Of a DNA stretch of 64,000 nucleotides, positions 5,673 to 63,570 are shown piece after piece. The position numbers were made by a program, and so were the translations under genes. Numbering within the stretch: position 1 is the first letter of the stretch; each line of letters opens with the position of its first letter. The notes below the pieces were generated by a model. That model was not told the DNA's origin, searched no databases, and was given only the letters and a program-made list of their open reading frames with translations. Source of the DNA: Octopus sinensis (Eukaryota); NCBI RefSeq assembly GCF_006345805.1, contig NC_042999.1:60884001-60948000 (forward strand). Reading direction: 5' to 3'.

Positions 5673-6059
5673 CATACATACATTCATACATACGTTCATG
5701 TAAGTATGTGTGGCGGGGAGACATATATATATATATATATATGTGAGTGTGAGCGAATATAGGTTTTCAGTAGTAACTTTTCTGCTATTTCCAAATATTC
5801 CCGAGAAGAAATAGTTGAAAAAATATTTAGGAAAGGAAAGATCTGAGAGAGGAAGGGAAAGATCTGATTCCAAAAATAGTAAACGTCAGTTAGGGCTTAT
5901 ACATTCATCAAATTCCGCTTGTTATATGTTATATAATTATACATTCAATCTTCGTCTTAACGGGTCGCTTTCTTTTCCTAGGGTAGGACACTGGATGTTT
6001 CAGAATTACCGATTAGGCATACGTGAAACTACACGCATATGTTTGCCATTACGCATCTT

Positions 6060-6675
6060 ACTTCTTTATTGCCCATAAGGAGCTAAACATAGAGGGGACA
6101 AACAAGCACAGACAAAGGGATTAAGTCGATTACATCGATCCCAGTGCGTAACTGGTACTTAATTCATCGACCCCGAAAGGATGAAAGGCAAAGGCGACCT
6201 CGGTGGTATTTGAAATCAGAACGTAAAGACAGACGAAATACCGCTAAGCATTTCGCCCGACGCGCTAATGATTCTTATTTTTTTATTTCCCACAAGGGGC
6301 TAAAGACAGAGGGAACGAACAAGCAGAGACAAACAGATTATGTCGATTACATCGACTCCAGGGCGTAACTGGTACTTAATTTATCGACCCTGAAAGGATG
6401 AAAGGCAAAGGCGACATCGGCGGAATTTGAACTCAAAACGTAACGGCAAGAGAAATATCTATTTCTTGACTACCCACAAGGGGCTAAACACAGAGAGGAC
6501 AAACAGATTAAGTCGATTATATCGACCCCAGTGCGTAACTGGTACTTATTTAATCGACTCCGAAAGGATGAAAGGCAAAGTCGACCTTGGCGGATTGGAA
6601 CTCAGAACGTAACGGCAGACGAAATACCGCTGAGCATTTCGCCCGGTGTGCTAACGATTCAGCTAGCTCGCCGCC
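6060..6675 (-). mobile_element. SINE family A trimer
   Basis: Three reverse-complement copies of the 842-1568 unit; imperfect flanking duplication TTTGCCATTACGCATCT / TTTGTTATTATGCATCT. Confidence 0.85.
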
Positions 6676-7789
6676 TTTTGTTATTATGCATCTGTAGTGC
6701 ATTGCTATGTATTTTTGTATGTATGTATGTATGTATGTATGTATGTATGTATGTATGTATGTATGTATGTATGTATGTATGTATGTATAAGCAGAACAAT
6801 GAATTTTTCTCTTTTATAAACACGACTCAGGCAGTAATTATAATCTTTAAACATGTGTATGGAGATAGGTACATAACAACATGTACATACTTGAAATACA
6901 GTCATGCTCATTAACAGACACAGACATGTACTCACGCACACGTAAGCATCTGCATACATTGAGGGTGCATACGTATACAAACGTATACACTCACCAATAT
7001 ACATTCACAGACGTACACATATTTAGTGGAAGTAAACTCATCTTCCTATACGGCCACATCTAAGAGAGCTGCGACAATGAAGGAATCAGCTACGCGAGCG
7101 ATCGATGTACTGCGACTACGACGATTTCTGGTACACATTCCGCTTTTTCTCAGGTTTGCTGAAACTAAAGAATTGGTGGGGTTCACTGTCTCAGGCGCTT
7201 GTAACACACCAACCACCTCAAGGATTACGATCCGTTATGAAACGACTGGTTCTTTTTTGTTTTGTGGTTCTAAGATATTGAGACCAATGAATATCTTAGG
7301 ACCAGAAAAAGAAAATGAAAATGAAGATATAGATTGAAAGGTTTTGTGTCCTGTACACGAACAACGCTCAATAGTAGGACCTTCTTTGTTGACGACTGCC
7401 AGAAAAGGCGTCGATCTGAAAAGGCCAAAATACTAAAGATTCCTATAGAACCAGAACCGAAGATTATTATCTTCGAAAACCCATACCACTCGCATTCACA
7501 CAGCATTTCTATATTCTGCTATATTACTGGCAGTTATTAAAAGAACCTTCATATTATTTGTGTCCCGCTATCAATTCTAAATATTTCCAAACATCATATT
7601 AATCGAAATCTGATGAAGGTCACTCATCTCTATGTGTTTCTGATGTTAGATTTGGAATATGTAAAATGCAAGAATTCCTACCACAATCTTCTGTGTATCA
7701 CAGAAATGTCATGATGTAAAGTGCAAAGAGGGAAGCAGATAATGCTCATCCGTGGAAAGAAAAACCTACGGAAAAGACCACGGTAACCT

Positions 7790-13489: not shown

Positions 13490-13510
<21 letters not shown>

Positions 13511-13524
<14 letters not shown>

Positions 13525-13581
13525 CCAAAGTGTAAGTACGTATCTCTCTTTCTCTCTCTCTTTCTATATATATATATATAT

Positions 13582-13616
<35 letters not shown>

Positions 13617-13670
13617 AGAGAGAGAGAAAGAGAGATACGTACTTACACTTTGGTCTCTCTCTCCTCTCTC
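13511..13670. repeat. Foldback inverted duplication centred on a (TA)n tract
   Basis: GAGAGACCAAAGTGTAAGTACGTATCTCTCTTTCTCTCTCTCTTTC-(TA)n-its reverse complement. Confidence 0.9.
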
Positions 13671-13780
13671 TATATATATATATATTTATAAATAAGGATA
13701 AGATCGTTCATTTAAATATCGATCTTATCAAGTAGCCAGCATGGGAATAAAAACCTTCAAAGGTAATAATTATTATTAAA

Positions 13781-13968
13781 ATTATAATTTAGGGTATCTA
13801 AGAGATACCTCCAAGCAGGAAATAGCAGCCAAAACTTGACTCTAAAACCACATTAAAACTTCATACAACGTCAGGTGCTGTATGAACATCCAATGTGGTT
13901 TTAGAGTCAAGTTTTGGCTGCTACTTCCAGCGTTGAAGTATCTCTTAGATGCCTAAATTTTAATTGTA
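13781..13968. repeat. Palindromic (MITE-like or inverted pLTR) element with about 85-bp arms
   Basis: ATTTAGGGTATCTAAGAGATAC..GCAGCCAAAACTTGACTCTAAAACCACATT..TTCATACA versus TGTATGAA..AATGTGGTTTTAGAGTCAAGTTTTGGCTGC..GTATCTCTTAGATGCCTAAAT. Confidence 0.8.
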
Positions 13969-14051
13969 TATATATATAAAATTGGGACAAGAACGCAAAA
14001 CATCCAGATAGACGATACAAAGAAATCAAGGACAGGTCATTCGGAGTTTTT

Positions 14052-14130
14052 TCCTCAGTCGAGTTCCAGATTATCTTTGCAGTTTCGGCTGGTTATACTC
14101 AAGATTGCTCCAATCTGGCTATCCCCAAGG
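14052..14130 (-). ncRNA. Candidate rearranged (non-circularly permuted) hammerhead ribozyme, degenerate 5'-truncated copy
   Basis: GGAUA-G-CCAGAUU-GGA-GCAAU-C-UUGAGU-AUAAC-CAGCC-GAA-ACUGC-AAAGAU-AAUCUGG-A-ACUCGA-CUGAGGA. Homologous to 44125-44266 with compensatory changes; lies in an insert at about 13978-14235. Confidence 0.65.
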
Positions 14131-14231
14131 GAAAACTAAGATAACTTCTCCACTGGACTTTCTACCTTTCTACCCTTTACGGATTCTCTTTTGGACATTT
14201 ACCCTCCACCTGCACCTCTCCTACCTGTGTA

Positions 14232-19233: not shown

Positions 19234-20858
19234 GTTGCGGCCAAAATGTTCAGAACGGCATTGTTTTCGTCAGAAAAGTAAGTATAAGTTTTTATCATAG
19301 TGATTTTCTATTCTATAATTTTCACAGACAATAAATACAATATTAATTGTTATTGTCTGAAATTTTTGTGTAATTTGAGAGGATAATACAAAAGTTATGG
19401 ATGATTTAGTGATTTACTGCAAAACCCATGGCGGCCAAAATGATCAGAACGGTTTAAAAAATAACAAAATAATCAAAAATGACAGAGAATACTGGAATTA
19501 TTTAATATTTAGTGTGAAACCCTTTAGCTTCAATCACACTCTGACATCTTCGACTGCATGAGGAAATTAAATTTTCAATTTCTTGCTGGGTGATCTTATT
19601 CCATTCTTCCTGAAGGGCATTCCATAATTGCTCAGTTGTTTTAGGATTTCTGGCTTTCGAACGTTCTCCTAGAATATTCCATACATTTTCAATAGGATTG
19701 AGATCTGGGCTTTGAGCAGGCCAATCCATAACAATAACCTTTTCAGCCTTGAGGAAGTTCATGACCACCTTAGCCTTGTGACATGGGGCATTGTCCTGCA
19801 GGAATATGGGTGGTCGCTTAGTTGAATTTCTCAGCACAGGCAAAACATGATCTTTTACAAGTTGTTTATAAACTTCTGCATTTACCTTTCCATGTAATCG
19901 CACCAAAGGGCCCACACCATCTCCAGATATCATCGCCCAAACGATGACACTTCCTCCACCGAATTTAACACTAGTCTTAAGGCATTTAGGCGACAATTTT
20001 TCACCTACTTTTCTACGAACGTACATTTTCCCATCTGAGCCAAATAACATAAACTTAGATTCATCACTGAAATGCACCGTTTGCTATTTTTCTTGAGACC
20101 ACAACACATGTTCGGTTGCAAAGGTAAGACGACACTTTTTATTCTTGGAGCTGATCAGTAACTTCACTGCAGATGCTCTTGCTTGTAGGTCATGTTCAAC
20201 TAAACGACGAGACACAGTTATTCGAGATAAAGTTTTCTTCAATACAATGCTCATTTTCCGAGAAACAGCAGCAGCAGTTTTAAATCTGTCCTTTTTAACC
20301 AACTTTACCATAGCACGATCTTCTCTCTTGGTCGTTTTTCTTGGCCTACGTGTAAACTTTCTTGCTTCACATGAACCACAATCATCCTAGACCTTAAGAA
20401 TACCGTGTACAACACTTTTTGACTTGTTAACAATTTTTGCAACAGATCCAATACTTAAATTATCCTTCCTTCGAAGCTTAATAATCTGCTGACGAATTGG
20501 TAACCGAGTAAGTGGCATTATATTAACAAAGTACACTGCAAATATTCTTACTAATGTTTAGTAAACGAACCGTCATGTAAACAAATTCAAAACATTAGAG
20601 TTCGCCGGTTAAATATACTAAAACACGGAGTAAAAGCAACCGTTCTGATCATTTTGGCCGCCATGGGTTTTGAAGTAAATCACTAAATCATCAATAACTT
20701 GTATTATGCCCTCAAATGACACCAAAATCTCAGGGAATAGCAAATGATATCGTCTGTATTGTCTGTGAAAATTATAGAATATAACACAACTTTGATAAAA
20801 AATTATATCTACTTTTCTGACGAAAACAATGCCGTTCTGAACATTTTGGCCGCCGTTG
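19232..20858 (-). mobile_element. Tc1-family DNA transposon with long IR/DR-type terminal inverted repeats
   Basis: TIRs of about 225 bp (19232-19455, 20637-20858), each with two direct repeats GGCCAAAATG(T/A)TCAGAACGG; TA flanks. Confidence 0.95.
19502..20518 (-). pseudogene. Tc1 DD34E transposase, one reading frame with two in-frame stops
   Basis: MPLTRLPIRQQII.. through FSDESKF, QDNAPCH and SPDLNPIENVW (34 residues between D and E). ORFs 20084-20311 and 19502-20077 are in frame with the ATG at 20518. Confidence 0.92.
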
Positions 20859-24179: not shown

Positions 24180-24988
24180 CACATACATACATACATGCAC
24201 ATGTGCTCTTTATAACAAACGAGAGAAAATAGTCAGTACATTGATTAAATCAAATATTTATACATTTATTGGTTTGACGCTACTGTTACTTAAAGTTCCA
24301 AATTAACACAATCAATCAAATGCTTAATGAAAACTATTCTCTAATCCACGATGGCGGGGCAGCCTCTCCATTCCATGGAGAACAACAAATAAAGTGAGTA
24401 GTCTGTTGTAGCCGCAGTCGTTGACATTTGAGGGAAGACGTTCTTGTTAAGGGTACCATATTCTTTGAAGATGATGTATGACAAAATATTGACATTGCAG
24501 CATTAACTTTTACAGAAATTCACTGCCAAGTTATCCATATAAGTTTCTAAATTAAGCCTTATAGTACAATGCACTTCTAAGATAATATGCTTTCTAATAT
24601 GGGACCACGATTACGTTGCTAGGTGTTAATATTTCGACATGGTTTGAGGCGTCGAATTCTAGCTTATTGAATGAGTTAATTATGTAGTGCAGTTTCAGTT
24701 ACTTCACAAAATGTGCGATATGTTTGACTTGTGCAAAAATTTGAAATACTTTAACGAAAACACTCGCTAAATGAATATAATATATGAAGATGATAAGTTT
24801 CTTGGATATAATACGAAATACGAAACACAAACACTGGTAAAAATACAGCATACCTATCACAACCTCGCCATATAAGAAAAACTATTCTACTAGAAACTCT
24901 AAACATATCATGACTATACAGCGTGAAGAGCATGTTATCCGTTTTCCAAGATCATTTACATCTAGACTCTTATCGAATAGAAATATAT

Positions 24989-25595
24989 ATTTCTTTATTG
25001 CCCACAAGGGGCTAAACATAGAGGGGACAGGACAAACAAGGACAGACAAACGGATTAAGTCGATTACATCGACCCCAGTGCGTATCTGGTACTTATTTAA
25101 TCGACCCCGAAAGGATGAAAGGCAAAGTCGACCTCGGCGGAATTTGAACTCAGAACGTAGCGGCAGACGAATTACCTATCTCTTTACTACCCTCAAGGGG
25201 CTAAACACAGAGGGGACAAACAAGGACAGACAAACGGATTAAGTTGATTATATCGACCCCAGTGCGTAACTGGTACTTATTTAATCGACCCACGAAAGGA
25301 TAAAAGGCAAAGTCGACCTCGGCGGAATTTGAACGCAGAACGTAACCGCAGACGAAATACCTATTTCTTTATTACCCACAGGGGGCTAAACACAGAGGGA
25401 ACAAACAACGACAGACATAGGTATTAAGTCGTTTACATCGACACCAGTGCGTAAATGGTACTTAATTTATCGACCCCGAAAGGATGAAAGGCAAAGTCGA
25501 CCTCGGCGGAATTTGAACGCAGAACGTAACCGCAGACGAAATACCACTAAGCATTTCACCAGGCGTCTTAACGTTTCCACCAGCTCGCTGCCTCT
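24989..25595 (-). mobile_element. SINE family A trimer with 21-bp target-site duplication
   Basis: TSD TCTTATCGAATAGAAATATAT at 24968-24988 and 25596-25616; internal junctions match those in 842-1568. Confidence 0.9.
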
Positions 25596-26106
25596 TCTTA
25601 TCGAATAGAAATATATTGAACAAACTGTCCCAAATATAATAGATTAGCAGCTGGGAGTATTTTCAGCATCAAGCTTAAAGACAGACAGCAAACTTCTGTA
25701 AATAACACCAAACATAATGATATAAATCACATGGGAATCTGATACTTCCCTCAGATTTATAAATGTACCCAGCACCTTCCTTACATACTCAGAAAATACT
25801 TTCTCACATCTATTTCCCGTCCATGAGTCAGTTTCAGATATGAAAAAATCCCAACAGGGCATGCAAAATTTCAAACACAATTTTATTTATGAATATAATA
25901 TATTGCTCATTACTGAAGCAGTAATTACTAAAAATTATTGTTTTCATTCAAAACTTGATTTCCCATTGGTTACGTTTTATTGTCTCTTACCCATCCTCTT
26001 TTTTCCCTTCCAAATGTTTTTATGTTTTGTTTTTTTATATTAAGTGATCGCTATTTTTTCCAAAGACTTCTTGGAATCAATTCTCTTTTTCTGTTTCCTT
26101 TTTATA

Positions 26107-26582
26107 TATTTTTTTCTTTATTACCCACAAGGGGCTAAACATAGAAGGGACAAACAAATGGATTAAGTCGATTACATCGACCCCAGTGCGTAACTGATAC
26201 TTAATTTATCGACCCCGAAAGGATGAAAGGCAAAGTCGACCTCGGCGGAATTTGAACTCAGAGCGTAACAGCAGACGAAATACGGCTACGCATTTCGCCC
26301 GGCGTGCTAACGGTTCTGCCAGCTCGCCGCCTTCTGTTTCCTTTTTATATATATTTCTTTACTTCCCACAAGGGGCTAAACGTAAAGGGGACAAACAAGG
26401 ACAGACAAAATGGATTAAGTCGATTACATCGACCCTAGTGCGTAACTGGTACTTAATTTATCGACCCCGAAACGATGAAAGGCAAATCGACCTCGGCGGA
26501 ATTTGAACTCAGAACGTAACGGCAGACGAAATACGGCTACGCATTTCGCCCGGCGTGCTATCGATTCTGCCAGTTCGCCGCC
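26107..26582 (-). mobile_element. Two full SINE family A copies separated and flanked by the same target sequence
   Basis: TTCTGTTTCCTTTTTAT at about 26089, 26332 and 26583. Confidence 0.85.
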
Positions 26583-27440
26583 TTCTGTTTCCTTTTTATG
26601 TAGGCAGTCTATGCATATTTACAAGAACACAGCAAGATCTCGTGCAGCGGCTATGGTTCAATTTTTTATCATTAACTATATACCATTAATATAAGAACGT
26701 CTATATTAGTCTTATGTGATTGGTAATGAACAGAATATTATACATTTGCAATTTTTCTCTTGCAACACCCATGCAGCAACACACGGTTCCATGAAATATT
26801 ATTACTCACCACATGCGCCTACTGAAAAAAATTTAAAAAAAAACACTAAGCAGTAATTCTTATACCAGAAACCATAGAATTTGAGACCCATTCACTCATT
26901 TGCTTTGCCTGTTGGGAAACACAAACATTCACTACTATTTAAATGTCATTTTGTATTTCAAAGCTCTCATTATGATACAGAATTCCCTTGTGCACATATA
27001 ACCTAATCGTGATTCATCTTTACCAGGTGCGGAGAAGCGTTTCTCTATTTATCTGTGAAATTTCTAACTATAAAAAGTTTTACACTAACACGTGCTCATT
27101 GGGCTCCTTACAATATCATGTATTTTTTTTCTGATGATTAATCCTCTTCGTGTTCTTAATTAGCAGTGGAGTAGAAAATAGTAAATTTAAACCAGGGATA
27201 GGCTTGTACTTCTCCTTATACAAATGTTTGGCTTATAAACGAAGAAAAGCGTCCCAGTTTATTCGAATTCAACTGGGTATGTAACTTAATAAAAGTTTTC
27301 TTTAGTAAACCACAATGGTTTCAATACATCTGAAGTCCTTCGTTCAATGTTAAACAAGATCATTAGCATTTAATGGAGACTAAGTTTCCACTCTTCTTGA
27401 AGTTTCATGAAAAGTTTTCATACAAAAGCTCGAAACACTG

Positions 27441-30019: not shown

Positions 30020-30670
30020 CTTTGACTGGATTTTAGGGATCGACCAATGATTCATCCTATGTGATAACTCTGCTGAAAAAGTCCTCCTCGTTTCTTTGGC
30101 ACATTGCCAAAAGAGCTTGCGAGTACTTGACTCGCTCCTGCATCTGAAAATGTGCGAACATCCGGGGAATCCATCTTGCAGTCAACTTCCGCATATGCAA
30201 ATGGTCGTATATGATTTTTTTTTCCACGGACCCTACACTTATCTTCACTGGTTGTCGAATAGTTATGCAGCGATCCTCTAGAATGGCGGTTCCCACTTTA
30301 TGAATGGTGTTGTCATCAATGGCAGAATGTGGTTGTCCAGGAATAGGAGCAGTTTCCAGCGATGTCCGACTACAATTGAACTGGTGATGCCAGTGCTTGA
30401 CTACGTTGTATGATGGTGTATCGCCACCATAAACTTCTTTCATCTCATCGAATGTCATTCTTGGTGTAGACCTTTCAAGTATAAGAACCTGATCCCTGAT
30501 CGGCATCCAACTGCCTCCGTTATCACTCCTTAGTCCACGACAGCAGCCGTAAAAGCTAAACGAATACTAGTGGAAAACACCAATTTGCAATATGACATGT
30601 AGAGACATGTATAATTACACTTTCCGTTTCCTGTGATGACCGGAAGTGGATCAAGGGAAAGCCTCTCATG
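30020..30670 (-). mobile_element. mariner 5' half (degenerate transposase)
   Basis: EMKEVYG..VKHWHHQF..LHMRKLTARWIPR..FFSRVIT*DES (WVPR and first catalytic D motifs). Confidence 0.85.
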
Positions 30671-35065: not shown

Positions 35066-35103
35066 TCTTTAACGTTTCGAGCCTACGCTCTTCAACAGAA
35101 AGA
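35066..35103 (-). ncRNA. Minimal hammerhead motif of the PLE 3' pLTR
   Basis: UCUUU-CUGUUGA-A-GAGC GUAG GCUC-GAA-ACGU-U-AAAGA; perfect 5-bp stem I, palindromic ACGU stem III, A6U core variant. Confidence 0.75.
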
Positions 35104-35272: not shown

Positions 35273-35615
35273 TATTAGTGCGTAGGAGGGGTCTGGACGT
35301 GTGTATGTATAGGGTTGGTGTATGTATTAGTATGTATTAGTATGTATAAGGGTGTGTGTGTGTGTGTGTATGAGAGAGTATTAGTGCGTAGGATAGGTCT
35401 GGACGTGCGTATGTATGGGGTTGGTGTATGTATTAGTATGTATTTTTATGTATTAGTACGTATTAGTATGTATAAGTGTGTGTGTGTGTGTATGAGAGAG
35501 TATAAGTGCGTATGAGGGGTCTGGACGTGTGTATGTATAGGGTTGGTGTATGTATTAGTATGTATTAGTATGTATTAGTACGTATTAGTATGTATTAGTT
35601 GGTGTATGTATTAGT
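35273..35615. repeat. Three about 110-120-bp tandem repeats in the PLE 3' region
   Basis: Unit AGTGCGTAGGA..GTCTGGACGTG.GTATGTAT.GGGTTGGTG(TATGTATTAG)n. Confidence 0.85.
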
Positions 35616-38600
35616 ATGGCACATCATATATGATGTGATGTGTAAAGTCGTGCGGTGTAGTGAGGAGAAGAGGAGGGGAGAAGAGAGGGGAAGGGGAGGG
35701 AAGAAGAGGGGGAGGAGAGGAGGGGGAGGGGGAGGGGGAGGAGGAGGGGAGGAATGAGGAAAGAGGGAGAGGGGGAGAGAGAAGGGGAGTGAGGGAGCAG
35801 AGGGAAGAGGGAAGGAGGGAGGGAGAAAGAGGGAAGAAGGGAAGGGGAGTAGGGGTGAAAGGGTGAAGGACTGAAGAAGTAGGGGTCGGGGGGGAAGGAT
35901 AGGTGAGGAGGGGGGAGAGGGGGTTAGATGAGGAGGGGGGAGAGTTGAGACCAAATGGCGTATAAGAGCGAAGAGAGAAGATTAATTCCTGTTCACGGCG
36001 CAAACGGGAATCCGGATGGCCTCTGTGTAAGGACAAACCGAACACAGATAGGTGTTGCAATGAGTGACCGGTGGAGCGGAAATGGCGTGAGACCGGTGTG
36101 TCGTTTGCAAGTTGGATGTCACGAAGGTGTTCCGCGAACCGGTCAGCCAAGCGGCGTCCCGTTTGTCCGATGTACAAGGAATTGCAGAGAGAGCAAGAGA
36201 TGCAATAGATAATATTGCTGGAGTTGCAGGTGAAGGAGTGGATGATGGGATAGGGTCGATGGTGGGTGCTAGTGAGGCGGGTGGTGTTGGAGAGGTAAGG
36301 GCAAGTGCGGCAAGGTGAGCGGGAGCAGGGGAACGAGCCGGGTTGGGAGGTAGGGTCAGGGAAGGAGCTATGGACCAAAAGGTCTCGAAGGTTGTGGGCT
36401 CGTTTGAAAGAGGGGAGGGGTCGGTTAGGGAAGAGGTGTGAAGTGGACGGGTCGGACTGGAGATGACGGAAAGCTCGAAGAATGGTGCGTTGGAGACGTA
36501 GGGTCGTGGGGTGGTAAGTGAGGGGAAAAGGGAGGCGGGAGACTACAGGGCGGGTTCGGGGAGAGAGAGCAGATACACGGTCCAAGGACCGTGCTCTGGC
36601 AAGGGCGGTGTGGATAGTAGTGAGGGGGTATCCACGTAGGGTGAAGCGGTGAGCCATACGTTGAGACTGAGTCTCAAAGTCATGGTCGTCACTACAGAGC
36701 CTACGTAGACGGAGGAATTGGGAATAGGGGATGGAAAGCTTGGTGTGTTCTGGGTGGGAGGAAGAGAAGTTGAGGTATGAGTGTGAGTCTGTGTGTTTGT
36801 AGTGAATGGAGGTGGTAAGAGTGGAGTGAAGAATGCTAACCGAAATGTCGAGGAAGGAGACAGAGGTGTTGGAGATAGTGGAAGTGAAGTGGAGGGCGGG
36901 ATGGAAAGATTGGACGAAAGAGAGGAAGGAATCTAGATGTTCACGGGAGAGTGAGGTGGCACCGATAATGTCGTCAATGTAACGACCATATAGTTCAGGA
37001 GTGGGACCAGTGAAATTAGAGAATATTTGGGCCTCAACATAGCCAACGAACAGGTTCGCATAGTTGGGGCCCATTCGCGTTCCCATGGCCACTCCCGAGA
37101 CCTGATGGTAGAACTCACCCGCGAACGAGAAGCAGTTCAGAGTAAGGACAAGTTCGGCCAGACGAATGAGTGGAGGTGTCAGGTACAGGGTTAGAGCGGA
37201 GGTCAAGAAAGTGTCGAAGGGCCTGCAGTCCTTCGTGGTGAGGGATAACAGTATAGAGGCTTTGGATGTCCATAGTAAAAAGGATTTTGGAGGAGCCGGG
37301 AGGAAATGAGAAAGAGTTGAAAAGCCGGAGAGCATGGTTGGTATCGTGGATGTGGGAGGGAAGAGATGCCACTAGGGGGGCAAGGATACGGTCGAGGTAT
37401 TTAGAGATGAGCTCCGTGGGGCAGTTACAGGCGGAGACGATGGGGCGGCCAGGGTTGTTCGGTTTGTGGATTTTGGGGAGGAAGTAAATGGTGGGGGTAC
37501 GTGGGGTTCGCACAATTAGGTTGGATGCGGTGCGGGGGAGACGGGAGGACGCGATGAGGTCGCGGACAGTAGAGGATACCGTCTGTTGGTAGCTACGTGT
37601 GGGGTTAGAGGGCAGAGGGGAATAGAAGGAGGTGTCATTGAGTTGGCGGAAAGCCTCGGCCCTATAGAGGTCCGCGCGCCACACCACTACAACTCCACCC
37701 TTGTCAGCCGGTTTGATGATAATGTCAGCGCGCCGTTGGAGGGAACGAAGAGCCAAGAGCTCAGCCGGGGAGATGTTGAGGCGGCGTTGGCGCCTGAAGA
37801 AGTTGAACCGCTCCAATGCACGCTGACAAGCGCCCGCGAAAAGATCCACTGCTAGGATCTTGCCAGGGGCAGGCGTCCACGGGGATGGTCGGCGGCCCAG
37901 GCCAGTGAAGCAGTCCTCTTCGTTGGGTGTGGGTGGCGTGTCGTGGTAATGCGCACCCAACCGGACACGGCGCACAAAGCTGTGGACATCAACTCGCGTC
38001 TGGAATTCCTTACAGGATGGAGTGAGGGGAATGAAACGCAGACCCCTACCAAGGACGGAGCGTTCAGCCGCAGAGAGGGGAAGATCGGGGGGAATGGTAA
38101 CAACAGACGGAAGTGGAGAAGGGGTGGCTGGAATAGAAGTAGGAGGGGTGGTAGGTCTCGTGGAGGTCTGAGGGGGTGGTTGGGGGGGCAGTAGGTTTAG
38201 GTGTAGGTGGATGGAGCCTATCGGGAGGGGAGAAGGGATTGTAGGGAGGGGCAGTGGGGTTAGGTGTGGGTGGATAGAGCCTATCGGGAGGGGAGAAGGG
38301 TGGTGGAGGAGTTGGGGTAGTGGCGTCGGGTAGGGTGGAATGGAAGAGTGATTGGAGTTTACGAAGTTTGGTATCAGAAAGAAATTGATGGAAGAGTTGA
38401 TTCAAATGGATAATGAAGCGTAGCGTGTTTGGAGCATAGAGAGGCGGCAGAGAGGAGAAGAAGGTGGAGAAAGCAGGAGGAAGAAGGCGGTTGATGGCAT
38501 GTAGTTTGGAGAGATTGGAGCGAATGGTGGCCCGCATAATGCGGTAAGATGTGGTGCGGAGTATGGGTAAGATGGAAGAATCCGAGTGGAGAGCAGGGTG

Positions 38601-38800
38601 GAAGTGGAGGCGGAAACCTTTAGGGATGAGTCGGTGATGTAGGCAGCGGCTTAGGAAAGAGACATGGCTAGAGAAGCGGGTTTTTTAAAAAAGAAGTAGA
38701 GAGAGATCAACGGACGGCTGAAGGCAATATACAGGAAAGAACGGAGATGATCCTTCAAACGGTGATGGAGGGTGAGGAGGTAGGACCTAGGATCCGGCAT
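35611..38800 (-). pseudogene. PLE polyprotein (reverse transcriptase, Cys-rich linker, GIY-YIG endonuclease), frameshifted
   Basis: PADKGG, LPKIHKPNNPGRPIVS, LFTMDIQSLYTVIP, GVAMGTRMGPNYANLF, RYIDD, CSRSPCRTC, IIYCISCSLCNSLYIGQTGR, PFGLN (near 35945). Split over ORFs 38651-38851, 38064-38537, 37115-37975 and 35611-37335. Confidence 0.93.
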
Positions 38801-39209: not shown

Positions 39210-39367
39210 CCCTTCCTTTTCCTATGTTTCTGACGAAGCACTCCGCTCGAAACGTTAAATCCTCCTACTTTCTTTCCTTTCCTGAGCGTCCAATAACACT
39301 CTATACTTGTTCCACGTCCTCGCGTTGTTGTGTTTTCTCTTTGTGTTTTCATGTTTGAATCAACTTT
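39210..39367 (+). mobile_element. Diverged pLTR-like segment with hammerhead motif (39226-39260), inverted relative to the adjacent PLE
   Basis: GUUU-CUGACGA-A-GCACUCCGCUC-GAA-ACGU-U-AAAU; shares CGAAACGTTAAA..TTCCTGAGCG..TTCCAC with the 3' pLTR. Confidence 0.7.
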
Positions 39368-43741: not shown

Positions 43742-44062
43742 GAGAGTGGGTGAGTGAGAGTGAAAGAGAGAGGCAAGAAGAGTAAAGCTTTCAGAGAATC
43801 TTTTGTTCATGCTTCGGATGACTATATTTCCTATTCTTTAAATTATTCCTACTGATTCGATTGTAAGATGCAGTTCGCTGATTCTCTCCCAACTGGACAG
43901 TGTTTACCACAATTCCCGCCCCTAAGTGAACTTGGATCCTAGTAGCTTACCAACTGGAGAACACAGACCGGTACCTATCAGTTTGGGTTACTCTTGATTT
44001 AAACTGTTCATTTTCTCTCCATCCCTTCTCTCTTTGTGTGTATATATATATAAATATATATA

Positions 44063-44480
44063 AAAGTACAAAATGGGACAAGAACGCAAAACATTCAAAT
44101 AGACGATACAAAAGACGGACGGGTCATTCGAAGCCTCTAATCTTCAGTCAAGAACCGGATCATCCTCGCAATTTCGGCTGATTAATCTTGAGATTGCTCC
44201 GATCTGGCCAGCCCTAAGGAAAAACTAAGCTACGAGCATTAGATATTTTGGAAAAAGGATCGAATGTATACGAAACAAGGACAGAAAAACGGACAATGTT
44301 ACACGAATATAAATACAATAAACAATAATAATAATAATAACAGGACAAAAACAACAGCCTTCTTTCGACTTTAGACAGTTCAACTTAGCTGGCGTATTTG
44401 AAAAATAATGCCTTACGGCAGACGAAAAGGTGGATGTTGTGGCGCTGGTCAGAAGCCGAAAGGCTATAGTTGACATAAAT
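44063..44480 (-). mobile_element. Non-coding PLE-like element in (TA)n carrying the rearranged hammerhead
   Basis: Homologous to 13978-14140 (TGGGACAAGAACGCAAAACAT..TAGACGATACAAA..GGTCATTCG); flanked by (TA)n; no credible ORF. Confidence 0.7.
44125..44266 (-). ncRNA. Candidate rearranged (non-circularly permuted) hammerhead ribozyme
   Basis: CAUUCGA..-GGCUG-G-CCAGAUC-GGA-GCAAU-C-UCAAGA-UUAAU-CAGCC-GAA-AUUGC-GAGGAU-GAUCCGG-U-UCUUGA-CUGAAGA-..UCGAAUG. Confidence 0.75.
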
Positions 44481-51543: not shown

Positions 51544-52385
51544 TACCCTTCACATTTTTCCTATCTGTCTCCGATGACAGAATATCCCATGCTTTGGGAT
51601 AACCCAGAAACAGTTGTAACTTTTTCCTATAGTAATTACGTACATGACAACAAATATTTGTCTTGCCTTAGCGTTTGTTGTTGTATTTAACAATAATATG
51701 TATATGTATATATATACATATACGACGGGCTTCTTTCAGTTTCCCTCCATCTAATCTGCTCAGAAGGCATTATAATAGAAGACACTTGCCCAAGGTGCCT
51801 TGCAATGTGACTGGACGGGGAACCATGTGGTTGGTTACAAGCTACTTACCACACAGTCACACCTGCACCCATATATATATATATATATAAATATATATTA
51901 ATAAATGAAATAAAACATATGCATATATATAAACATATATGTACGTACCTACCTCTACATGTACATATACACGCATATATGAGTACAGGACACTAAAAGG
52001 ACGTCGAACACAAAGAGAAAGGAAAACATAGACACAAACCAAAGGAACAGGACATTTTTTTAAAAACAACAAAAAATGGAGTACAGGACAATTGACACAA
52101 CGAAAAAACCCCTTCTTCAGTCGCTAAGGTTTCATCTACTCTACGTTTCGAAGGATAAAAGCGAGACGTATCTTCGACAAGAAACTTTCCTTCCTGCGAA
52201 AAGCAAATCAATTAAAATTCTGAGATCTTTTCGCAGAGGGGTAAAAAATGGTAAAAAAATGGTAAAAAAACAGGACACTAACGACAGTACAAAAATATAA
52301 ACAGTAAGAAAACAGTAAAAAAATATATATAACAGTAAAAGACAGGACAGGGAAAACAAGATAAGAAGGGCTGTATATATATATG

Positions 52386-58326: not shown

Positions 58327-59552
58327 GTCATCCCATAAGTTCTGTCCGAATTTAGATATAAGAAAACAAGTGATTTAATTGAAATTTAATCATCAATGTA
58401 TTTTCCATGATTATCTATGACTTCCTTCCATCTATTTACAATCTTTTTAATCCCATCAATGTAAAACACTTCTGGCTTCAAAGCGAAGAACTTTGAAATG
58501 TCAGTTTCGATCTCCTCCTGGCTTGCGAAAGTTATGTCCCCCAAATGATTCTGTAAACTACGAAACAAATGGTAGTCTGAAGGGGCCAAATCGGGAGAAT
58601 AAGGTGGATGAAGAATACTTTCCCAACCAAGCTCTTCAATCTTCTGTGATGTGATCTTGGCAGTGTGGGATCACGCATTATCCTGAAAAAACATCACTCC
58701 TTTTCGATTCACTAAAGCGGCGAGTCTTTTTTTCTTCAAAGCTTGGTTCAAACGCTCTAATTGCTGACAGTAGACTACTTGAGCATTGATTGTTGCATTA
58801 GGTAGTAACAATTCAAAGTGAATTACTCCTTTGCAATCCCACCAGATAGAGAGAAGAACCTTTTTACCATGAAGTTCCATTTTCGGTTGTGGTTGAGCTT
58901 TTTCCCTTTTACCAAGCCACAGTTTATGACTTTTAACATTTCGATAGAAGATCCATTTTTTGTCTCCAGTCACAAGTCTATCCAAAAAGGGTGAAATGAG
59001 TTCGCGAGAATGTAGCGAAGAGCAGATGTCAACTCAGGATTTGCGGTTGCTTTCGGACAATTCATGAGGCACCCATTTTCCAAGTTTAAGAACCTTTATT
59101 GCCACTTTTTCAACTGATAATGCAGGACTTTCGTCAGGTAATGCCTCAAGGAGATCATGATCAAGCTCAACTGGGCGTCCTGTTCGATCTTCATCTTCAA
59201 GGCTGAAATCTCCACTTCTGAATTTTGACACCATCTTCTGCAAGTTCATTCATTGAAGCGTTCTTTCCCATAAACTGAGTGTATGTTTCGAGTCTCTTCA
59301 AGTTCAGAGTTTCCTTTTTTTGTACTTATAAACATTATGTGCCTCAAATGCTCATTGGATACTTCCGTGTTAGAAAGGGCTTTAATCAAAGAAATTTTAA
59401 TTCTATTAATCTGTAAAATAATATTTAATTTGTTTAAATGTACACAAATGCATAAAAATAAATTTTAATTTTATTAGACATTCTAAAGTACTAGTAAATA
59501 TCCTTCAATTTTAAAAAAGCTAAAATCGGACAGAACTTATGGGATGACCTGA
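58323..59552 (-). mobile_element. mariner DD34D element with both TIRs, transposase pseudogenised
   Basis: TIR TCAGGTCATCCCATAAGTTCTGTCCGA at both ends, TA flanks; WVPHELS, VTGDKKW, QDNA, YSPDLAPSDYHLFRSLQN. Confidence 0.95.
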
Positions 59553-61345: not shown

Positions 61346-62160
61346 GTAAAGCAAAGAGCGCGATTCGATTGTAAGTTATTTTATTAGTTGAACGATATTT
61401 CAACAGTACGTCTGTCTTTGTCAAGTGGAAAATAAGAAGTGATAAAAATTCAAACTTATAGAAATTTAAACGTAAAGTATGAACGAGAGCAACCAGCGTC
61501 CACACGTTGATAGAATGATATCACCAATTTTTAAGTTACAATTGTATAAAAGGCGAAAAGAAAAAGACAGAAAAAACAGAAAACAGATGACGACAGAAAA
61601 AAGGAAAGGAAAAGAGAGAAAGAAGAATATTTGATCAAACAGTTTTGTATAAATTTGATGATATTCTCCTGCCATCTTATTCCTTCCTCCAGGGCGTAAT
61701 GTTAATATCCCACAAACATATTTCTCCTCATAGATTCTGAGGAGTGAAAATTAAGCAGATTCAGAATATTTTCTGAGAATATGTACTTTCAAGTCTTCTT
61801 CAAAATTGCAGCCGCTTGAAATGAAATATTCAGCAAGTTCTGTCGAACTACTGTTATTGTGCCTGACGTCGAATCTGTACCCATTAAACCTTTTGTTTAA
61901 TTGTTCTGTTGTACAACCAACATAAATTAAATTGTGTTTCATGCATTCTGCAGCGTACACCAAATGGGAATCTTTGCATGTTCCACCTTCTGTATAAATC
62001 ATAACATTTCTGTTATGATTTCTGAAGGAATTCACTTCACTCATGTTGTTGCACAATGAACAGGGCTTGCCTCTCTTACAGTTGTTCTTTAAGAACTTGC
62101 TGAAAATTTCGCTTTTGTTTTTATGTTTTCGTTTCTCATTGTGTTCAGTTTTTTTTACGT
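61345..62160 (-). mobile_element. 5'-truncated Penelope-like element (GIY-YIG end plus 3' pLTR with variant hammerhead-like motif at 61391-61427)
   Basis: CKRGKPCSLC..CKDSHLVYAAECMKHNLIYVGCTTEQLNKRFNG; CUUGACAAAG-ACAG ACGUA CUGU-UGAAAUAUCGU. Confidence 0.8.
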
Positions 62161-62180
62161 CCTGTACTCATATATGCATG

Positions 62181-62402: not shown

Positions 62403-63570
62403 CATTCCATATATAATGTTTTTTATACTTCTTTTATTTTTCAAAATTAAGATAAACAAAATTCTCTTTTATCCTAAAATATACTCACTTTCATATTCTA
62501 CAATGTTCTTCCATTTATCTGGTAGAATTGCAAGCACCGTCTTCCAAATTCCACTTGTCCGTGGCGAAAAATACTCCTCTAGTACTGAACCCACCTCGTC
62601 TACAGAATTCATATTTTTTTCTATCCAAATGACTTTGAAGACAGCGGAATAATTTATAATCAGATAGGAAAAAGTCCGGCGAAAATGGTGTGTGGGGCAT
62701 CGTTTCCCATTCAAACTGCCCCAGCCTTTGGAATGTTATCCTCATAGTGTATGGCCAAGCATTATCCTGATGGAAGAACACTTTTCGTCTTGAAACCAAA
62801 GATGGTCGTGTTTCGTCTAGCGCTGACGTAAACTTCTCAAGCTGCTTGCAGTACATCTCCTTTGTTATCATTTGGTTTGGGTTTCAAGGTTCAATGTTCA
62901 AAGAGCACGCTTTTTATATCCCATCAAACAGATAACAACACCTTACGTGGATGAAGACCTTATTTAGCCTGGGGTGCCCGTGTTTCTCCTTCCCCTACCC
63001 ATTGTCTGTGGTCAGTACTTAAGATTTATATAGACAACTGATTTTTTATCTCCAATCACTATTCGGTCCGAAAAATCTTCATTCGTGAGACATGACAGCA
63101 AAGACGAGCACACATTCACTTTCTACACGCGATTAGACTCGGAAAGTTTGTGAGGAACCCATTGACCCAAATTGCTGACTTTCCCAATAGCACACAGTTA
63201 TGGATGAATGGTTGAATGACCAAATCCAAGCTTCTCTGCTAGTTCAACAGTTACGATGGGATTTTCTTCCACCAGGGTTTGCAGGACGTCCTCGTCGAGC
63301 TCCACAGATCTTCCAGGACAAGGATCGTCTTCTAGGTTGTAGCTTCCAGCTCGGAATTTCTGGAACTGCTTATACTGATTGTCCCATCCCCATATACTAC
63401 ATTAATATTCCTCGCACTTTCCGTCGCCTCGTACCCTTTATTGACCTCGTAAATCAAAGTATGCCAAATATGCTCCTTTGTCAGTTCCATTGTAGCTTTG
63501 AAGAAATAGCTGTGAAAATCGAAGTAGATGTGCTACACACTGAATCACTTAAACAAGGAGAGATATATAA
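62398..63570 (-). mobile_element. Degenerate mariner element
   Basis: LGQWVPHKL, FFHQDNAWPY, HTPFSPD..SDYKLFRCLQ; left end TAGGGTCATTCCATAT. Confidence 0.88.

Follow-up and report, generated by a model that had tools for sequence, protein, structure and literature searches.

Around positions 14,052 to 14,130 of a 64,000-nucleotide stretch of the Octopus sinensis genome (NCBI RefSeq assembly GCF_006345805.1, contig NC_042999.1, positions 60,884,001 to 60,948,000; hereafter the window), we identified on the minus strand a hammerhead-like RNA motif within a repeat copy at 13967-14144. Our reading, to which we assign a probability of about 0.65, is that this repeat is a decayed, 5'-truncated, non-coding copy of a Penelope-type element, and that the pseudoknotted hammerhead-like fold of its source elements is likely self-cleaving. 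It is likely a dead copy documenting selection on a variant of the hammerhead fold, for which catalysis is predicted, and its value lies in the comparison of subfamilies.

A hammerhead layout opened within its core

The strands of the motif follow one another, 5' to 3', as the 5' strand of stem II, one strand of an extra helix, block S, block G, the extra-helix partner, the 3' strand of stem I and the core word CUGANGA (Table 1). The block order S, G, C is that of type-SGC hammerheads, and the uninterrupted 3' block C of that type was not found. In the majority sequences of the family to which the copy belongs (fam14) and of its sister subfamily (fam44), the 3' strand of stem II has no partner after the core; the partner sits instead 21 bases upstream of the predicted cut. 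The layout is therefore that of an S-G-C circle with its opening at a fourth site, the A9-G10.1 link. The core words CUGANGA, GAAA and U-H (H not G) are present, and in the family majorities stems I, II and III covary and stand in exact register with the core.

The strands quoted in an earlier note on this DNA all lie on the minus strand where it placed them. The uncompensated mismatches that it saw in the 13967-14144 copy are likewise there, two in stem II and one in stem III. It also took the 5' closing strand to be truncated, but that strand is present at 14120-14124, mutated at two places, and the copy breaks off near 14144, 20 bases outside the motif on its 5' side.

Rfam hammerhead models (types I-III) gave no match at gathering score in the window. 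A nested type I reading that uses GAAU and GUC, two words lying 3' of the core, lacks a stem I partner. For splicing that would join A9 to G10.1, a GU donor is absent downstream of the core and only some families have an AG ahead of G10.1; nor does any tandem junction bring G10.1 beside A9.

Table 1. Parts of the motif in the copy at 13967-14144, and the other motif-bearing copies of the window
Feature	Positions	Strand	Remarks
fam14 repeat copy	13967-14144	-	5'-truncated 3' part of a unit of about 760-820 bases; (TA)n tract at its end; 87-89% identical to the longer L033 and L282 copies
Stem II 5' strand with G10.1	14120-14124	-	upstream of all other parts; two private mismatches
Extra helix (stem I-II interaction helix), 5' strand	14112-14118	-	pairs with 14066-14072
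Block S	14097-14108	-	in register with core
Block S: stem III 3' strand	14105-14108	-	
Block S: U16.1-C17	14103-14104	-	
Block S: stem I 5' strand	14097-14102	-	
Predicted cut site	between 14103 and 14102	-	by analogy
Block G	14079-14091	-	
Block G: stem II 3' strand	14087-14091	-	
Block G: GAAA	14083-14086	-	
Block G: stem III 5' strand	14079-14082	-	one private mismatch
Predicted kink-turn at stem III-extra helix junction	14073-14078	-	3-base bulge, then GA, opposite GA at 14109-14110
Extra helix, 3' strand	14066-14072	-	
Block C, first part	14052-14064	-	no stem II strand after it
Block C: stem I 3' strand	14059-14064	-	
Block C: CUGANGA core	14052-14058	-	
Purine-rich strand	14045-14051	-	may pair with U tract at ~14130-14137 (possible closing helix P0)
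fam44 copy, sister subfamily	44041-44470	-	motif 44141-44213; core and stems I-III intact
fam52 copy, unrelated family	51893-52374	-	same layout; motif 52114-52193

Fixed changes keep the fold and private changes break it

The copy had been described as a third copy of its kind; an nhmmer search with a profile of 73 related copies found two members of this sequence family in the window, the copy at 14 kb and 44047-44291, and the similar motif at 52114-52193 belongs to an unrelated family of the same layout (fam52). Elsewhere in the genome, a 24-base word with one mismatch allowed retrieved at least 2,168 copies of fam14 and at least 6,932 of fam44. When 93 distinct copies were clustered, 36 fell in fam14 and 43 in fam44, and the 14 found in small clusters were excluded from the comparison of the two. 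The majority sequences differ at 13 of 73 motif columns, seven of them in stems, and these seven fixed differences break no pair, being made up of three double changes and one repaired mismatch. Relative to 44141-44219, the compensatory changes proposed for stem I (A-U to G-C and A-U to U-A) are real fixed double changes, and the change in the extra helix resolves into a C-G to U-A double change together with the repair of an A.C mismatch. As had been observed for the single copies, the core of the majorities differs at N7 only. With 13 random changes and a CpG bias, 1 to 3 of 10,000 simulated runs kept every pair and the whole core.

A third stem I difference, C-G to U-G, had been counted among the subfamily changes. 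It occurs in 31% of 35 other fam14 copies, chosen mostly by their likeness to the 13967-14144 copy, and in 2 of 24 informative copies among those chosen by the 3' 24-mer only; it is recurrent CpG decay and no mark of the subfamily.

Private changes were counted in 28 of 30 fam14 loci chosen by the 3' 24-mer only, two duplicates having been dropped. Per non-CpG site they amount to 4 of 103 in the core (3.9%), 41 of 678 in stems (6.0%) and 18 of 323 in loops (5.6%), a near-even spread as neutral decay predicts, and they break 36 of the 53 pairs that they touch. The three stem II and III mismatches of the 13967-14144 copy recur in 0 of 22, 1 of 22 and 0 of 28 informative copies of those so chosen. 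The proposed separation of diagnostic from private mutations thus comes out in favour of selection on the fold in the ancestors followed by decay after insertion: diagnostic changes break no pair, and the stem II and III mismatches are private. "Ancestors" is right when applied to the source elements, and selection on the fold alone is no demonstration of catalysis.

The same layout in families with unrelated stems

A descriptor of the layout matched the window twice, at the 44141 and 52114 cores, and found nothing in 300 dinucleotide shuffles; the decayed 13967-14144 copy fails it. Genome-wide, the pair of core words, so ordered and spaced, gave 34,555 matches against 5,085 for a reversed control, and at least five groups with different stem sequences share the layout among the sampled loci. 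For 146 descriptor matches in fetched loci, many of which are copies from the same families and not independent, the upstream strand reached a stem II score of at least 4 in 134 cases and the strand after CUGANGA in 7.

We also compared 21 hand-anchored representatives, namely five family majorities and 16 single copies. Hand anchoring favours the upstream stem II, and the extra helix played no part in choosing the representatives. Own strands paired better than strands swapped between representatives for stem I, the upstream stem II and the extra helix, with 0 of 10,000 permutations as good in each case; for the extra helix the energies are -6.75 kcal/mol (own) and -3.51 kcal/mol (swapped).

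Kink-turns have as their consensus a 3-base bulge and then tandem GA/GA pairs between two helices. This pattern is present in the 13967-14144 copy, in fam14, fam44 and a further family (family E), and in 8 of the 21 representatives. Two of the bulge bases are among the fixed differences between fam14 and fam44.

Host elements and the Naiad connection

The units of fam14, fam44 and fam52 are about 760-890 bases long, pyrimidine-rich and without an open reading frame (ORF). They end at a constant 3' position in (TA)n, begin at varying 5' points and form partial tandems on the same strand, which is the pattern of non-autonomous Penelope-type elements. Their (TA)n targets, 5' truncation and partial tandems with a tail are Naiad-like traits. 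Naiads have been reported without a canonical hammerhead, eight half cores being listed and left unexplained in the available part of that report (PMC8557442). One locus (L272:5200-5800, minus strand) contains an internally deleted Naiad with an endonuclease remnant and, downstream of it in cis and no more than about 270 bases away, a family E 3' end, and serves as a model for the origin of the non-coding units. Family E itself agrees by eye with the published 3' ends of Naiad_Obim and Naiad_Ovul (supplement to PMC8557442).

We examined the last 380-520 bases of 52 of the 54 consensus sequences in that supplement, by eye and without a script. The opened layout appears in nine of the 52 ends (Bfor, Amil, Aacu, Anas, 2_Movir, Plae, EuTe, Obim and Ovul), with a stem I of two pairs in Bfor; Esco is a degenerate tenth. 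The elements concerned come from ctenophore, coral, box jellyfish, acanthocephalan, clam shrimp and octopus, and their stems are unrelated. In EuTe, Amil and 2_Movir a short Watson-Crick helix directly follows A9 and a hairpin precedes G10.1. Type CSG was seen in six ends, all nematode (1-3_Nbra, Hcon, Hpol and Asuum), Smim is SGC-like, and in 4_Dst block G is followed by an intact block C, with block S not located. No such motif was seen in the part read of the other 34 ends.

On balance we lean towards the view that Naiads across animal phyla use non-circularly permuted hammerheads. These would be of type CSG, of type SGC and of a fourth, open-core form whose circle is broken between A9 and G10.1; the open-core form would be active without an A9-G10.1 link and would drive non-coding tandem derivatives that number in the tens of thousands in this genome.

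In the same supplement, the Naiads of bivalves and hemichordates and some of those of Clytia finish with a different motif, conserved, structured and free of hammerhead words, which may represent a further class of ribozyme.

An abundant Neptune-type family (L241-L248, L211-L240), young and with several intact ORFs of 781 residues, has neither kind of hammerhead at a common position across 30 of its 3' ends. It is a candidate either for the trans partner of the non-coding units or for a second hammerhead-free Penelope group. At two loci (L246:430-1190 and L210:4940-5540), inverted pairs of motif-bearing units lie in TA tracts just upstream of Neptune-type ORFs, which probably reflects a shared target preference.

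Proposed mechanism

We hypothesize that the extra helix, bent onto stem III by the kink-turn, ties stems I and II together, and that G10.1-C11.1 is held beneath the A9.G12 pair without a backbone link, perhaps aided by a closing helix after A9. In RNA from tandem units the cut would fall after the AUC triplet (after C17), trimming read-through or multi-unit transcripts. A Penelope-type reverse transcriptase with a GIY-YIG endonuclease, acting in trans and likely supplied by a Naiad, would copy the RNA into (TA)n sites. Once inserted, copies drift, as the 13967-14144 copy has done; having lost two pairs of stem II and one of stem III, this copy is predicted to be inactive.

Cleavage by such a fold finds precedent in the SGC and CSG forms, which carry the same extra helix and self-cleave in vitro according to the available part of PMC10085705, and in Penelope hammerheads, where an extra base at 9/10.1 is described as frequent in the portion available of PMC4209133. 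The 5' ends of copies chosen by 3' words offer a weak hint of cleavage: 30 of 155 fall at 0 to +26 of the predicted cut, and 9 at -27 to -1.

Several observations weigh against this reading. Within the copies, A9 is joined to G10.1 neither directly nor through one or two bases in fam14 or fam44, and the hammerheads tested in the available part of PMC10085705 all keep A9 no more than two bases from G10.1. The excess of 5' ends is significant in fam44 only (20 against 6, p=0.005; 5 against 2 in fam52 and 5 against 1 in fam14), another 16 copies start 28-54 bases before the predicted cut, and the peak lies 5-14 bases past it on an AT-rich linker whose joining to (TA)n might account for it. First units of tandems start after the cut in 1 of 5 cases in fam44 and 0 of 14 in fam52, and mostly begin further upstream. 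Copies chosen by pattern hold the core by construction. The double change between G-C and A-U, one of the three, would also be expected from CpG decay on both strands, and the A-U to U-A double transversion therefore carries most weight.

The folding data also leave room for doubt. The closing helix P0 is kept between fam14 and fam44 by four one-sided changes and is stronger than shuffles (3 of 300), but among the representatives own strands gave -3.75 against -3.37 kcal/mol for swapped ones (p=0.14, in a test that kinship makes conservative for P0), and a shifted control window did equally well; in the 146-match analysis, in which three anchors were misplaced, the swap test gave p=0.16 and 0.20. 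Nested folding energies are unremarkable (z -0.91, 0.87 and -0.21) and the pseudoknots were not recovered, single-sequence folding being uninformative for a pseudoknot. Finally, no coding parent of fam14 or fam44 was found beside the copies examined, the Naiad arrangement of an N-terminal GIY-YIG endonuclease and a C-terminal reverse transcriptase in one ORF being absent there. Eight wide-spaced or paired fam14/fam44 sites contained no Penelope-type ORF, and the search for a parent yielded two Naiad endonuclease remnants only.

Alternative explanations

The fold may have been selected and yet no longer be catalytic, acting as a hammerhead-derived scaffold that is bound by a protein of the element or positions reverse transcription. 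We regard this as unlikely, while noting that the core is open at A9/G10.1 with P0 unproven, that the 30 3' ends of the abundant Neptune-type family have no hammerhead at a common position, and that an Anolis Penelope-type protein can insert in vitro without hammerhead cleavage (available part of PMC11167929), a result which also counts against our main reading. A scaffold does not readily account for the persistence of U16.1-H17, with H never G, of both core words and of the exact register of stems I and III where the stems themselves differ completely, nor for the same persistence in published Naiads, which were chosen independently of our search patterns.

Cleavage might instead take place only in a dimer, across tandem units or with the aid of a protein, in the manner of minimal Penelope hammerheads, which act as dimers (PMC4209133) or require protein (PMC11167929) in the available parts of those works. 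Same-strand tandem units about 760-890 bases apart would permit this, as would a palindrome within the stem I strands of fam14. A single unit, however, can form all three stems and the extra helix, with a stem III of four pairs, and no tandem junction or splice signal places G10.1 beside A9, which makes such a requirement quite improbable.

We consider it more doubtful still that the motif is an ordinary type-SGC hammerhead with a switch, in which the second base past CUGANGA serves as G10.1 and the upstream strand acts as a competitor that gives the off state. A G does stand at that position in 16 of the 21 representatives, one family (fam51) is able to form five downstream pairs, and the swap test for a downstream stem II gave p=0.058 among the representatives. 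Against this, fam14 and fam44 have neither such a G nor downstream pairing, the coral, box jellyfish, acanthocephalan and clam shrimp Naiad ends read by eye likewise lack both, and the upstream strand covaries strongly.

It is very improbable that CpG decay and chance, acting on a high-copy repeat, produced the covariation as an artefact, and this reading has already been largely refuted by the swap tests, the CpG-bias simulation and the shuffles. In its favour, one of the double changes and the wobble are transitions of CpG type; against it stand the A-U to U-A double transversion and the recurrence in unrelated families.

Relation to known hammerheads

The self-cleaving fold that we propose shares with the type-SGC (HRIMA-1 and variants) and CSG hammerheads of PMC10085705, as far as the available text describes them, the core words, the S-G-C order, a short linker between stems I and II, an extra helix joining the other sides of these stems, and at least two pseudoknots. 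It differs from type-SGC in that block C is broken, the 5' strand of stem II and an extra-helix strand standing at the 5' end and not after CUGANGA, and in the predicted kink-turn of several octopus families. Despite its probable SGC-like working, we do not file it as a type-SGC hammerhead, because its block C is not contiguous. The published SGC and CSG examples are, in that text, from metatranscriptomes and metagenomes only, whereas the octopus motif occurs in thousands of copies in an animal genome.

With Naiads (the HHR_core and HHR_half_core entries in the available part of PMC8557442) the octopus units have in common the (TA)n targets, partial tandems and fixed 3' end, and family E matches by eye; unlike Naiads, the fam14, fam44 and fam52 units lack an ORF, and their link to a Naiad parent is putative. 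Minimal type I Penelope hammerheads (accessible text of PMC4209133) similarly sit in terminal repeats, covary across many families and may have the extra 9/10.1 base, but are nested and have a tiny palindromic stem III; one lies in the window at 39230. Animal non-LTR (non-long terminal repeat) retrozymes (10.64898/2026.07.22.740005, a 2026 preprint, available part) are likewise non-coding tandem units, derived from Penelope elements, with one hammerhead each. They are defined by type I hammerheads, the preprint using type I models only, whereas the octopus motif is not type I and escapes such descriptors.

Neither this layout nor a connection between Naiad half cores and permuted hammerheads was found in the open-access literature searched. 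In the available part of PMC10085705, Eckert 2023 assumed CUGANGA and its stem II strand to be inseparable by more than one or two bases. If the octopus motif cleaves, it would overturn the assumption that this link tolerates no interruption, place non-circular permutations not just in a few environmental sequences but in an animal repeat that is very common, and account for the apparent want of hammerheads in Naiads.

Neighbouring features of the window

Elsewhere in the window, a Penelope/Poseidon-type element with a reverse transcriptase plus a GIY-YIG domain at the C-terminal end occupies 35611-38684 on the minus strand. An ordinary minimal type I hammerhead with a mutated core lies at its 3' end (35073-35095, minus strand), and the plus-strand minimal type I hammerhead mentioned above (39230-39260) lies in an inverted repeat copy upstream of it. 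An isolated GIY-YIG fragment of Neptune or Naiad type, with a zinc-finger-like linker, is found at 61751-62167 on the minus strand and has no relatives among the fetched loci.

Adjoining the 3' end of the fam14 copy is a 190-base inverted repeat (13777-13968) with 83% identity between its arms, resembling a miniature inverted-repeat transposable element. Beyond it lies a 200-base palindrome (13490-13689), possibly a relic of an inverted insertion, both arms of which contain a word similar to the tail found after the fam14 3' end in tandems. Four minus-strand segments (19502-20386, 30057-30566, 58671-59033 and 62515-62883) are, from their translations, what we take to be remnants of Tc1/mariner-like transposases. 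Tandem arrays of a repeat of 170-240 bases that resembles a short interspersed element are present at 841-1568, 6056-6788 and 24976-26602.
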